The position numbers were made by a program, and so were the translations under genes. This document shows positions 3,126-11,399 of a stretch of DNA of 64,000 bases, in pieces (positions within the stretch are counted from its first letter, which is position 1; the number at the start of each line of letters is the position of its first letter). The stretch lies in IMG/VR virus record IMGVR_UViG_3300020383_000001, positions 1-64,000 of that record. The stretch is one strand, 5' to 3'. The notes under the pieces were generated by a model. It searched no databases and was not told the origin of the DNA. It saw only the letters and a list, made by a program, of their open reading frames with translations. Source of the stretch: a virus.

Positions 3126-4346
3126 TTAAAGAAAATTATAGTAACCCAAATTAGTTTCTTGTACTTGTTGGGTTAACATTTCTAACTCTACTTCAATTAG
3201 AGTATCACCTTCACCAATAGAGTAAGCTTGTAAATTACCAGAAATTCCAATTAAGTTATTATCATTTAAAGTAACTTTTGTTGGAATTCTTGAGCTTAAC
3301 CGGTAGGTTTTAAACTCTTCAAAGGAATAGTGCATATCATTGTAAATATCACTTTCCCTGAACTCTTCCTCACTCATATCTTTATGTTTGTAGAAAGGAT
3401 TGGCAATACTAGTAGAAATACGAATAGAATCAGAATTAGTTGATTTAGCTAGTTCATTTTCTAATTGTAATCTTTTAGAGTTATCTTTAAAAGATACAAC
3501 TTTATAATTAGTTGAACTACTTTTACGTAGATTAGGTACATTCATGACTTCAACAATTGAGTTCAAAGTCTCTTCTGAATGTACTGCCCATTCGTACATG
3601 ATTTCATTCATGGTATCGAATGTACAAGAATTACGGCGATTGTAAGTAACAAGACTTTCAGTTTTATCAGCAGATAAACCGTATTCTTTTGCTAGTTCTT
3701 CAACTACTTCAGTTTCAAGTCCACTGAAGTTGTACAGATAACGCATACGACTAGGACGGTCTCGGAAATAGTTTGATAACATATAGCTTTCGTTATCGAT
3801 TAAAATCGTAAGACGTTTAGCATTGTTTGTGCCGCTGAAGAATGTAAGCATCTCATCTTGGCGCATTTTTGCCGTAGCAGAATTTGGTCGCTCATCTTCA
3901 CTCATTTTACTTAAGTGCTTTAAGAACTCGTCAAAGATTACAACACAGTCACCAATTGAGTTGATAAAACTTAAGTATTCTGGAGAAGTACTAAATGTAC
4001 CTGATACATCAATTACTGGGTAACCTTGGTTGATTGCGTGATTAGCAATTAGATTAGCCAACAGAGTTTTACCGGCTCCTTTATCACCAAATAAGCCAAC
4101 ACCAATAGAATCTTTTTTGTGCTGGTACATATCCCATATACGTGTTTTACGTGATTCAGCATTACCATAAATCTTCTCAGGTAATGAAATAGCTTGGCTC
4201 ATACGTTCTAAGTAATAACCGCCAAAAGGACCTTCTTTGATTTGGTAGTAAGCAGGTGGAAGTTTGTCAACGATTTGACCTTCTTGTACTACGAAAGGTC
4301 TGGCTAGTTTGCCATCAATAGCAAATTTTTTGATGTCTTTTGACAT
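3126..4346 (-). CDS. P-loop NTPase (AAA-like ATPase)
   Basis: Walker A GLFGDKGAGKT and Walker B-like VVIFDEF. Confidence 0.5.
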   Translation of the reverse strand: MSKDIKKFAIDGKLARPFVVQEGQIVDKLPPAYYQIKEGPFGGYYLERMSQAISLPEKIYGNAESRKTRIWDMYQHKKDSIGVGLFGDKGAGKTLLANLIANHAINQGYPVIDVSGTFSTSPEYLSFINSIGDCVVIFDEFLKHLSKMSEDERPNSATAKMRQDEMLTFFSGTNNAKRLTILIDNESYMLSNYFRDRPSRMRYLYNFSGLETEVVEELAKEYGLSADKTESLVTYNRRNSCTFDTMNEIMYEWAVHSEETLNSIVEVMNVPNLRKSSSTNYKVVSFKDNSKRLQLENELAKSTNSDSIRISTSIANPFYKHKDMSEEEFRESDIYNDMHYSFEEFKTYRLSSRIPTKVTLNDNNLIGISGNLQAYSIGEGDTLIEVELEMLTQQVQETNLGYYNFL

Positions 4347-4388
4347 GATAAACCTTAGTTATTTTTTGAGGGTGTGAAGATATTTTCG

Positions 4389-4600
4389 TATTAATTATGG
4401 CAGCTCTGAGGGGATTCGAACCACTACCTATGAAGTCAGTTTTGGCTTTCATTTGTGGCGCAGATTGACACAAACTATTAACCAAAGTTCACCTTCACTA
4501 GCCACCCCAATCTAATCTTGATGCTTAGGATTCCGCCGACTCTCGTCTGCGCTGCGAGCGTCCATCAAGCATGATTTGGTGCAGAGCTATAATTAATACG
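4389..4600 (-). ncRNA. candidate structured RNA: tRNA-like element (T-arm GGTTCGAATCC plus acceptor-like 3' end CAGAGCTGCCA) closed by a perfect 19-bp inverted repeat
   Basis: CGTATTAATTAT-GG-CAGCTCTG at 4389-4410 is the reverse complement of GCAGAGCTATAATTAATACG at 4581-4600. An internal 7-bp stem CTTGATG/CATCAAG and a T-loop consensus are present. No ORF. Confidence 0.3.
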
Positions 4601-5089
4601 ACCTCCCCGAAGGGAGGAAGAACTATTTGATGACAAGGCGTTACCCTTGCTAGCGTGTAGGGTATTAAGCTACTGCTAGATATTGGCTATCATTTGCATT
4701 TATAACGATTACCGTATAGTTGCTAGGCGACGACTCCTACTCAACTATGTAATGCGGTGACGGGTGGTGAATTTCCCGCTTGATTAAGTGATCAACCTGT
4801 TGCCATCCACTTAATCGCTAGATGAGCGTCAAGGTCAAAGCCTTGACCGATGTTAACTACCAATCACCACTTGGCAATTCACCGCATTGTTGAGTTGGCT
4901 TAAAGATTTTCCACACCATAAGTGCTTGTATCGAATGTTGCCTTTAAACCAACTCAAAAATAAGGTAAATAACGTCCCTGTGCGACCACGGTAGGGACAA
5001 CACCGTTAAGGAGGATTCACATGGCTAAGAACCCCAGGTCTATACAATCATTTCAATAAAACAACCAATTCCAGGCACCGGAGGTGCCA

Positions 5090-5380
5090 TTACCATTCAT
5101 AGGTATTCAAATGATCATAAACTTTGGCATCTCTATCTAACTCAATTAAAAGACAATCCATATCTAAAGCAAATGCAATTAGATGTGCAATGTCATTAGG
5201 TAAGCTTTTAATCAAGTTATCTTGATAGTGTGTATGAAGCTTAATGAAGAAACCTTCATCACGTTTCATGACAGTAAATGGTGTATCACCAGGACTCAAA
5301 CTATCTAGATACTGCATGGTTTCTAGGCTAATGTGCGAGGTACTTAGAGCAATACATTGGTAGAGTTCAGGTTCTTTCAT
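5090..5380 (-). CDS. hypothetical protein (96 aa)
   Basis: Listed ORF, flanked on both sides by matching GGA-loop hairpins. Confidence 0.35.
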   Translation of the reverse strand: MKEPELYQCIALSTSHISLETMQYLDSLSPGDTPFTVMKRDEGFFIKLHTHYQDNLIKSLPNDIAHLIAFALDMDCLLIELDRDAKVYDHLNTYEW

Positions 5381-5564
5381 AAAATCACCTGTTAGTATTT
5401 AGACTGGATTGAGTCAAAAATGCCTGATTTTTAACTTTTACAATTCAGGTAAGTTAACTTTTCTAGCAAACTATCATATTTGATTAAAATACGTAGAATT
5501 TGATAAAAAATAAAATCCACCTAAGCAGCCGGAGGCTGCCTAAGTGGAAGTTAACTTTAGTTGA

Positions 5565-6578
5565 TTAGCTTAATGCGTATTCAGCATCTTTCATGAGTTG
5601 AGCCAGGTTATCTGAACGCTTGATTACTTTAATTGGTTCACCAGTAATCTCAGTAAGAATGCTACTAAGTAGATCACTATCAGCAATCTCAATTAAGATA
5701 TCGAGATAGTTCTGACGCATATTCTGTACGTAGTTAGGATGACACCAGAATGAATCATGAATGGTAAGAATCTCAAAGCCTTGCTTATGAGCTCTACGCA
5801 CCATTTCACGTACCACATAGCCATCAATGGAATGCGTAACATTAGCGGCTAAACTAATACCAGATTCCATTGGCCGGTTAACGTATGCTTTGTGGGTGAA
5901 CGTAGCATGGTCAAGCTCATCTACTTCAATTTTCTTGGTTTCCTCATCCATGACTGGAACATACGCTGTATGCCCATCAGGAAGCGTCCATGAGTGGTAA
6001 TGAGCATTACCTTGCCAGCAGGACTGGATATCATTCATGACTTCAAGAGCACCGCCTAAGTCTTTCTCAAGCATTTCATTGAAGATTTCAAGCTCTTGAG
6101 TATCCTCACCGAATACAAGCTTAGGCTGCTCTTTTGAGCCATAGAACGTAGTCATAATGGGCTTCTTGAGCTTACTACGAGGAATATCATGTCCAATTTC
6201 TTGGCTCATGTGTTTAGCTACGCGCTCATACACATCCTCACGTTTACCTGTATTAATCAGGTTTACTGAGTGAGCTGTATCGTGACAACCAATCAGACAA
6301 GCCAGTATCTGCAAACCAGATGCTGTAGCATCTAAGCCAATAGGCGTACCGGAAGCGATACCACGTTTAGCATCTTTCCAGGTACGCAACATTTTGGCAT
6401 ACAGAATAGGCTCATCAGCTTCGTTTTCTAAGGCTTCAAGCCCTGACAATGAATGACTATTAAACCAGTTTAAACGCTGTTGCCATGTAAGTTTATCTAA
6501 GCCAAAGTGATTAGCTACTGCAATTTTGATGTATTCAAGTGGAGTAAATTGTTGCATTGGATTTTCCTTATAAATCAA
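5565..6578 (-). CDS. phage RNA polymerase II catalytic subunit (T7-like palm, N4 gp16-like)
   Basis: T7 RNAP motif A (GLDATASGLQIL, compare T7 DGSCSGIQH) and motif C (ILTIHDSFWCHP, compare T7 ALIHDSFGT). Confidence 0.8.
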   Translation of the reverse strand: MIYKENPMQQFTPLEYIKIAVANHFGLDKLTWQQRLNWFNSHSLSGLEALENEADEPILYAKMLRTWKDAKRGIASGTPIGLDATASGLQILACLIGCHDTAHSVNLINTGKREDVYERVAKHMSQEIGHDIPRSKLKKPIMTTFYGSKEQPKLVFGEDTQELEIFNEMLEKDLGGALEVMNDIQSCWQGNAHYHSWTLPDGHTAYVPVMDEETKKIEVDELDHATFTHKAYVNRPMESGISLAANVTHSIDGYVVREMVRRAHKQGFEILTIHDSFWCHPNYVQNMRQNYLDILIEIADSDLLSSILTEITGEPIKVIKRSDNLAQLMKDAEYALS

Positions 6579-11165: not shown

Positions 11166-11399
11166 AATCATCTGTGAGGATCGTTAATGTATGAGCCTAT
11201 ATGGGTGTATTTAGCTCATGGTTAAGCCAATGAGTAAGGTATGTAATCATAGATGATTCTGATAAAGGTAAATTAGCGATAATCACCAGTGATTACTCTA
11301 TGTGGCTAATCATCTATGAGGATCGCTAAAATATGAGCCTTGAACTTTGTTTTTGGATCATCTATGATTCGTTTTACCATTCTCATGATCACAGGTGAT
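11166..11399. promoter_or_regulatory. array of six 14-bp palindromic operator-like sites (AATCAY-NN-RTGATT) plus two 33-bp direct repeats
   Basis: Sites at 11166, 11245, 11281, 11308, 11357 and 11388; direct repeats AATCATCTGTGAGGATCGTTAATGTATGAGCCTAT and AATCATCTATGAGGATCGCTAAAATATGAGCCTTG; the last palindrome overlaps the start of the HTH gene. Confidence 0.45.

Follow-up and report, generated by a model that had tools for sequence, protein, structure and literature searches.

A tRNA-like module, predicted to be closed by its own flanks, in a candidate tmRNA-like gene of a marine N4-like phage

What is the tRNA-like element, closed by a long inverted repeat, that lies on the minus strand at 4389-4600 of the window, i.e., of the whole 64,000-nt stretch of viral DNA analyzed here (IMG/VR record IMGVR_UViG_3300020383_000001)? 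The sequence-only reading that had flagged it offered three kinds of answer: a tmRNA-like or mascRNA-like tRNA mimic, a precursor with an RNase III processing stem, and a small MITE-like element with terminal inverted repeats. Among these, the tmRNA-like candidate turned out to be of the correct kind, as indicated by a tag frame upstream of the element and by colinear fragments of the Rfam tmRNA model.

The window belongs to a marine N4-like (Schitoviridae) phage. It contains an ORF of 3329 aa, the size of an N4-type virion RNA polymerase, for which Pfam gave no polymerase match, and it also encodes two small N4-type RNA polymerase subunits. The nearest isolate is an Alteromonas phage (39% identity of the ATPase). 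Identical contigs are yielded by marine metagenome assemblies, the protein source names include Tara, and further contigs with the window's own genes show 100% identity. The flagged element lies in a 743-nt gap without genes (4347-5089), which has one transcription direction in common with its neighbors, a DUF5983 ORF and an AAA ATPase gene. Most of this gap (672 nt, 4389-5060) folds far better than shuffled sequences (z = -4.2); folded alone, the 212 nt of the element are only modestly better than shuffles (z = -1.8).

The minus-strand 3' end of the element reads AGUGG UUCGAAU CCCCU CAGAGCU G CCA, where the T-loop consensus, the acceptor-like 3' strand and the encoded CCA described earlier can all be recognized. 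The following features were assigned to the element and its flanks.

4409-4425, minus strand: T-arm AGUGG-UUCGAAU-CCCCU with one U-C mismatch in the T-stem, matching Rfam tmRNA positions 350-360.
4398-4408, minus strand: 3' acceptor strand CAGAGCU (4408-4402), followed by G73 and the encoded CCA (GCCA, 4401-4398).
4582-4588, minus strand: internal 5' acceptor strand AGCUCUG (strand T below), forming seven Watson-Crick pairs with CAGAGCU; AUAGCUCUG is kept in the related contig L002.
4589-4601, minus strand: leader arm of the inverted repeat, UCGUAUUAAUUAU.
4386-4398, minus strand: trailer arm of the inverted repeat, AUAAUUAAUACGA, the first letter of which is the A of CCA.
4503-4581, minus strand: arm I, comprising CACC/GGUG, AAUC/GAUU and a 7-bp CUUGAUG/CAUCAAG helix with a 39-nt GC-rich insert.
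4430-4502, minus strand: domain resembling PK4 and the 3' strand of P2 of E. coli tmRNA, according to local alignment to ssrA and to folds.

The complement of the acceptor strand, AGCUCUG at 4588-4582, is indeed located 180 nt upstream, counted from start to start. The perfect 19-bp closing helix proposed for the element requires correction: the exact inverted repeat and the 7-bp acceptor pairing are real, the 64-kb window containing two copies of CGTATTAATTAT and no more, inverted relative to each other at 4387-4398 (plus strand) and 4589-4600 (minus strand), but a bulge interrupts the helix, which consists of 13 bp (4601-4589 x 4398-4386), the 3-nt bulge GCC (4401-4399) and then 7 bp. The A of CCA takes part in this pairing, and the element in fact spans 4386-4601. 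In its interior, the 7-bp helix CUUGAUG (4569-4563)/CAUCAAG (4523-4517) around 39 GC-rich nucleotides (64% G+C, counted by hand) was confirmed; the start of arm I (ACCAAA.CAU...UGGAC) is kept in L002, and the PK4-like domain contains the helices GUGAAG/CUUCAU, UUUGGUU/AGCCAAA, and GUUUGUG/CACAAAU. Inverted repeats of 12-13 bp are not rare, with nine pairs in the window (seeds of at least 11 nt, at most 300 nt apart). The T-loop motif GGTTCRANTCC has three copies in the window vs 0.13 expected, and the conjunction of the repeat with an abutting 7-bp acceptor pairing, the T-loop motif and CCA is far beyond chance.

The third copy of the T-loop motif (892-902) is part of a degenerate tRNA-like element, E2, at approximately 981-881 on the minus strand, immediately 3' of tRNA-Met. 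The ends of E2 read UAGCUC ... CAAGG-UUCGAGU-CCUUG-A-CAGAGCU-AUAACUAAU, and the tmRNA-like gene has counterparts of the T-arm, the CAGAGCU strand and the AUAACUAAU trailer at its own 3' end; E2 lacks the GCC of GCCA. ARAGORN reports E2 only at -ps80 (101 nt, undetermined anticodon), and its fold is no better than shuffles (z = +1.2). The similarity suggests that the acceptor/T-arm/trailer unit may have been duplicated within this phage; the parallel thus supports AGCUCUG...CAGAGCU as one evolutionary unit. Two other repeat structures were observed elsewhere in the window: AATCATAGATGAT and its complement are found at three places in the 125 nt of 11245-11369, where the minus- and plus-strand gene blocks diverge, possibly a regulatory or origin region, and a hairpin with 21-nt arms (86% complementary) and a 30-nt loop lies at 2361-2432 between two minus-strand ORFs.

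As anticipated, the element is not a normal tRNA: ARAGORN with default settings and the Rfam tRNA model (E<=10) are silent, and the acceptor strands are 173 nt apart. That the element has nothing to do with the tag-like sequence upstream, being instead a tRNA mimic in its own right or a small mobile element (MITE) with terminal inverted repeats, is very improbable, despite terminal arms that are exact over 12-13 nt and the paralogous T-arm/acceptor/trailer module at 905-873. The MITE explanation finds no support, since the arms are confined to this locus in the window, no copies were found in the phage, IMG/VR, and JGI collections, and no target-site duplication is seen; blastn against the phage collection likewise gave no match. 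The mascRNA-like or other tRNA-type mimic fared no better, as no match to the Rfam tRNA, YrlA or other mimic models was obtained at E<=10 in 4200-5200. Moreover, the interior aligns to the 3' third of tmRNA, and a tag precedes the element by about 65 nt and the T-loop by 292 nt, which is a tmRNA-like spacing. Sub-threshold YrlA (Y RNA-like) matches were noticed in another related IMG/VR phage (L009, ATPase 45% identical) at 6061-6128 and 6175-6238, with 40.1 and 27.8 bits vs a gathering score of 69; they adjoin tRNA-Met and tRNA-Arg genes.

A short distance upstream of the flagged coordinates, at 4697-4650, come the tag frame and its hairpin, accompanied by a further conserved hairpin.

4665-4697, minus strand: tag frame GCA AAU GAU AGC CAA UAU CUA GCA GUA GCU UAA, encoding ANDSQYLAVA*, supported by Rfam, ARAGORN, and L002.
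4650-4679, minus strand: helix-5-like hairpin (CUAGC/GCUAG plus GUAG/CUAC) with the stop codon in the loop.
4716-4748, minus strand: pre-tag hairpin AUAGUUG/CAACUAU enclosing UAGG-AGUCGUCG-CCUA, within the block best conserved with L002.

Standard annotation passes over the locus: neither default ARAGORN nor Rfam at its gathering thresholds makes a call there. In a permissive Rfam search, tmRNA positions 86-140 (tag and helix 5) match 4704-4652 (E = 0.02-0.045) and positions 350-360 (T-loop) match 4422-4412. The two fragments are colinear, their spacing being 292 nt vs 274 in the model, and their scores of 10.9 and 5.8 bits compare with a gathering threshold of 47, so that the curated detection thresholds are not reached; no full-length tmRNA alignment was obtained on sub-regions at E<=10. 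Relaxed ARAGORN (-ps80 and -ps70) finds the resume consensus and the same tag. Local alignments with E. coli ssrA cover the tag and, in matching order, the PK4/P2-3' region, ssrA positions 249-311 aligning with 4485-4423 inside the flagged element. The tag ANDSQYLAVA has the same length as E. coli ANDENYALAA and shares five residues with it. Structure prediction, with tools blind to pseudoknots, returned nested hairpins only.

Several internal similarities were observed around the tag. Its start, CAAAUGAUAGCCAA (4683-4696), recurs as CAAAUGAAAGCCAA (4442-4455) in the PK4-like domain with 13 of 14 positions identical (p ~0.005-0.02); both copies lie in similar hairpins, and the second would read (T)NESQN*. 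A tandem duplication of the whole 5' half was considered and dismissed, the chained alignment being not significant (p ~0.11-0.14) and only the 14-nt repeat standing out. In addition, the tag end and stop region, GCAG-UAGCU-UAAUAC (4662-4676), is complementary to the leader/AGCUCUG segment (4581-4599), which could pair with any of three partners, namely the tag end, the 3' acceptor strand with the trailer, or E2.

Relatives were sought through homologues of the ATPase, DUF5983, and RNAP2 proteins and the contigs encoding them, and the only one found with the RNA is L002, a short contig with an ATPase 70% identical. This contig begins 45 nt upstream of its tag, and the pre-tag block gives the best local alignment with the window (score 77). 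The L002 tag, ANDNNYTMEAAA*, is different yet tag-like: both tags (10-12 codons, in frame) have an ANDxxY start, an Ala-rich end and a stop codon in the hairpin loop. The codons for Asn (AAU in the window, AAC in L002) and Tyr (UAU and UAC, respectively) differ synonymously. The Asn codon site may instead be constrained by RNA pairing, and because the Asn change also keeps the hairpin, selection on the peptide is cleanly supported by the Tyr change alone. The outer stem of helix 5 is CAUGG/CCAUG in L002 vs CUAGC/GCUAG in the window, with three compensatory changes in five pairs. Downstream of the tag, the blocks AUAGCUCUG-ACCAAA-CAU-UGGAC and GGUGGCU-GUGA are common to both, and the L002 RNA is highly structured (z = -5.6 relative to shuffles).

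No T-arm and no CCA are present in L002 between the tag and the ATPase gene, and its AGCUCUG pairs locally with the adjacent CGGAGCUA; an upstream permuted acceptor piece, beyond the contig end 45 nt 5' of the tag, is possible. At 161-249, the L002 RNA ends in a helix drawn at 22 bp with a near-perfect 18-bp core (ACUUAUUCGGCUGGUGGC/GCCGCCAGCCGAAUAAGU) that has no counterpart in the window; it encloses a hairpin, the GGGC loop of which could form an H-type pseudoknot with a downstream GCCC, as judged by eye. Exact-pattern scans of IMG/VR returned nothing, degenerate patterns derived from the two conserved blocks gave no or only random matches, and phages with ATPases 39-48% identical or RNAP2 ~60% identical contain no such gap or tmRNA. 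The family rests on two sequences.

The 3' acceptor strand has a second potential 5' partner, located upstream of the tag.

4836-4842, minus strand: candidate 5' acceptor strand GGCUUUG (strand S below), forming seven pairs with CAGAGCU, two of them G-U.
4850-4877, minus strand: sigma-70-like promoter (TTGCCA, 16 nt, TAACAT) with a predicted start at approximately 4843/4842.
4817-4835, minus strand: P2-like 5' strand, pairing ACCUUGA with UCA(U)AGGU (4433-4426) and UCAUCUAGC with GCUAG-UGA (4502-4495).

The promoter-like site is the sole one on this strand within 4200-5400, although promoters are not enriched overall (3 found vs 2.9 expected from shuffles). The same scan of 4200-5400 gave no promoter-like site directly upstream of 4601, so that the flagged module must derive from a longer precursor. 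When ~128,000 windows of the whole sequence were compared by how well they complement the strands on either side of the T-arm, the segment 4842-4817 came 2nd to 5th; ARAGORN at -ps70 builds a standard tmRNA at 4841-4402 with the ANDSQYLAVA tag. An upstream "anti-T-arm" segment (4777-4762) was attributed to chance, its rank being only ~1,200th of 128,000.

Further upstream on this strand, between a terminator-like hairpin that follows the DUF5983 ORF (5082-5070) and the promoter-like site, the stretch 4877-5060 is strongly structured, containing two hairpins, one of GUCCCU/AGGGAC at 4998-4974 and a long one at 4970-4877, the arms of which measure 29 nt; AAUGCGGUGAAUUGCC (4888-4873) can pair alternatively with 4776-4751. 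This stretch may or may not belong to the same RNA.

Both acceptor pairings look non-random, and the predicted folding depends on what is enforced. In the unconstrained minimum-energy fold of the mature-length RNA, strand S is used with a probability of ~0.97, and this fold breaks the T-arm or swaps helix 5 for a pairing of the tag end with the AGCUCUG/leader segment. With the T-arm enforced, the energies are -128.2 kcal/mol for S vs -129.5 kcal/mol for T. When both the T-arm and helix 5 are enforced, T is ahead by 3.3 kcal/mol at mature length, the pair probabilities being ~0.98 for T vs 0.015 for S, and by 13 kcal/mol when the trailer is included. Thus, with these two elements in place, the internal strand is favored in folding, which would imply a new, two-piece layout.

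We tentatively favor, at somewhat less than an even chance, the interpretation that the element is the tRNA-like module of a divergent phage tmRNA-like gene (about 445 nt, approximately 4842-4398 on the minus strand) with an RNA that would become two-piece after processing. The precursor would start at the sigma-70-like site near 4843, or arise by read-through from upstream, and would run on into the ATPase gene; it would contain, in this order, the P2-like 5' region, the ANDSQYLAVA* frame, the helix-5-like hairpin, two small hairpins, and the module. Pairing of AGCUCUG (4588-4582) with CAGAGCU (4408-4402) would close the module on itself, and pairing of the leader with the 3' trailer would leave G73-C-C bulged. 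The resulting self-contained tRNA-like substrate could then be cut out by tRNA-processing enzymes, with RNase P cutting at 4589/4588 and RNase III, or RNase E together with exonucleases, acting on the 3' side. The product would be a ~191-nt tRNA-like piece ending in CCA, to which the tag-bearing piece would be held by the P2-like pairing (4835-4817 x 4502-4495 and 4433-4426). Such a tRNA-like piece would keep both acceptor strands, a layout that circular permutation of the standard gene does not yield; strand S (GGCUUUG, at 4842) would then be a vestige of the ancestral 5' acceptor strand. We know of no precedent for a tag placed 5' of the acceptor strand. The full version of this architecture, in which the tag part comes first, a self-closed tRNA-like RNA is excised and rejoined through the P2-like pairing, and the molecule either receives an amino acid that is not alanine or functions without being charged, we regard as possible, if rather doubtful.

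In favor of the two-piece model are the self-closure of the module in folding, the acceptor ends and trailer of the same type in E2, and, with regard to attachment of the coding piece, the high rank of the segment 4842-4817. Against the two-piece model stand the position of GGCUUUG exactly at the promoter-like start and the one-piece call of ARAGORN at -ps70, as well as the AGCUCUG block of L002, which appears without a T-arm or CCA between the tag and the ATPase gene. Its close rival is a one-piece tmRNA of standard order (4842-4398), with GGCUUUG/CAGAGCU as P1 and 4835-4817 paired with 4502-4495 and 4433-4426 as P2, which is somewhat unlikely in our estimation. The flagged helix would then occur in the precursor only, as a processing or folding intermediate, e.g., a site at which RNase III would also release the mRNA of the ATPase downstream; after trimming, the 5' end would take over the acceptor strand. 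The promoter-like site is placed as a one-piece RNA starting at 4843/4842 would have it, and the colinear complementarity of P1 and P2, the relaxed ARAGORN call with the same tag and the unconstrained fold using P1 argue for this arrangement as well. The order of tag, PK4-like domain, and T-arm is that of the Rfam model and of E. coli, and L002 could be understood as a permuted variant of the usual kind, with its break right behind the PK4-like domain. On the other hand, P1 includes two G-U pairs and, unlike known tRNA-like domains, has no linkers to P2 and the T-arm. Moreover, the one-piece fold falls behind by the above margins once helix 5 and the T-arm are enforced, the minimum-energy fold in its favor disrupts one or the other of them, and the 5' end and the resume codon are separated by 146 nt vs 85 nt in the Rfam model. 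The conservation of AUAGCUCUG in L002 is left without explanation, and the G3:U70 pair is missing from the one-piece RNA too. With respect to the precursor with an RNase III processing stem suggested earlier, the leader-trailer complementarity is real, and a role in processing is plausible.

A conventional circularly permuted gene can be set aside. No T-arm or CCA other than that downstream of the tag exists in the gap, and the permuted tmRNA called by ARAGORN at -ps80 needs a 13-nt T-loop, has no CCA and is not preceded by a complementary strand. An origin of the acceptor/T-arm unit from a host tRNA or tmRNA was likewise rejected: a scan of 185,579 species genomes gave 28 matches, none of them in a tRNA gene, and the T-loop/CAGAGCU-G ending was found in no tRNA or tmRNA of these genomes. 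BLAST of the 3' end against E. coli tRNAs gave no match at that database size; an apparent resemblance of this end to tRNA-Asn was given no weight.

To our knowledge, G3:U70 and A73 are the two main alanine determinants of every accepted tmRNA. At this locus, whichever 5' strand is used, C-G occupies positions 3:70 and G73 serves as the discriminator; both determinants are absent, which makes alanine charging impossible by canonical rules. The locus otherwise has the tRNA-like domain of a tmRNA (7-bp acceptor stem, canonical T-loop, and 3' CCA) and the tag features (resume codon, Ala-rich/hydrophobic C-terminus, and stop codon in the helix 5 loop). The name tmRNA-like fits it best, as it lacks one defining feature and scores below the curated thresholds; curators of the tmRNA Website rejected candidates with poor AlaRS features (PMC4131195).

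The missing identity elements raise the prospect of an RNA that descends from tmRNA but has lost aminoacylation, be it the decaying remnant of a captured ssrA or a decoy for SmpB or ribosomes that blocks host trans-translation. Such an RNA would be akin to the TLD-only molecule reported for mycobacteriophage DS6A. Both pairing models leave G3:U70 and A73 absent, the T-stem has a mismatch, default ARAGORN and Rfam thresholds fail, and L002 has no T-arm downstream of the tag. A search of the window for SmpB (tblastn with the E. coli protein) found no homologue, the protein being presumably supplied by the host, and TLD-like molecules, chargeable or not, are known to inhibit tmRNA (PMC4131195). 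Nonetheless, we consider this explanation unlikely: two lineages with otherwise unalignable intergenic DNA have each retained a tag in frame, ending at a stop codon in a hairpin loop, both RNAs are far above shuffles in structure, and the 20-bp closing helix is intact.

By definition, a tmRNA is charged with alanine and has a fixed topology, either standard or circularly permuted. What is new here is a locus that is cryptic to standard tools, is devoid of alanine identity and has an internal second acceptor strand. A selected tag frame without alanine identity in a phage RNA would test the strictness of the charging rule, and an acceptor strand downstream of the tag that of the topology rule. 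Such an RNA would also show phage use of trans-translation in infection, be it for rescue, selective tagging or sabotage. The frequency of tmRNA genes in phages has been reported as ~2% of genomes (PMC9004378); as the gene described here is missed by ARAGORN defaults and Rfam thresholds, this figure may be an underestimate.

Compared with known systems, the locus shares with standard tmRNA (SsrA; Rfam RF00023) the 7-bp acceptor stem, the T-arm with UUCGAAU, and the encoded CCA, a GCA-first tag resembling gammaproteobacterial tags with the stop codon in a helix-5-like loop, and the order and spacing of tag, PK4-like domain, and T-arm. It differs from SsrA in G73 replacing A73, in the absence of G3:U70, in scores far below the threshold (10.9/5.8 bits vs 47), in the perfect second 5' acceptor strand downstream of the tag and the leader-trailer pairing, and in the distance of the resume codon from the candidate 5' end (146 nt). 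The ~20-bp duplex formed by the flanks of the mature ends resembles the processing stems of stable-RNA precursors (rRNA and some tRNAs), whereas in the present case the 5' arm lies within the tmRNA-like transcript and is no true leader, and cleavage is only proposed. E. coli 10Sa RNA reportedly undergoes an RNase III processing step.

Phage tmRNAs are already known (PMC9004378, PMC4131195, PMC11915505), and circularly permuted two-piece tmRNAs occur in alpha- and beta-proteobacteria, cyanobacteria, and marine phages such as Melnitz (PMC9004378). The present locus is, like that of Melnitz, phage-encoded and marine (PMC9004378), and if the two-piece model is true, it would also resemble permuted tmRNA (RF04321) in yielding two base-paired pieces from one precursor. 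In contrast to permuted tmRNA, the tag precedes the T-arm and CCA, the tRNA-like piece would hold both acceptor strands, and the RF04321 score is 15.5 bits vs 47. The TLD-only tmRNA of mycobacteriophage DS6A (PMC4131195, PMC11915505) offers another parallel, being a phage tRNA-like domain, as the module described here could be if it is a separate small RNA. The two differ in the alanine identity elements, which are missing from this locus, and in the tag: the DS6A molecule has none, whereas here a conserved tag lies in the same predicted intergenic transcript.
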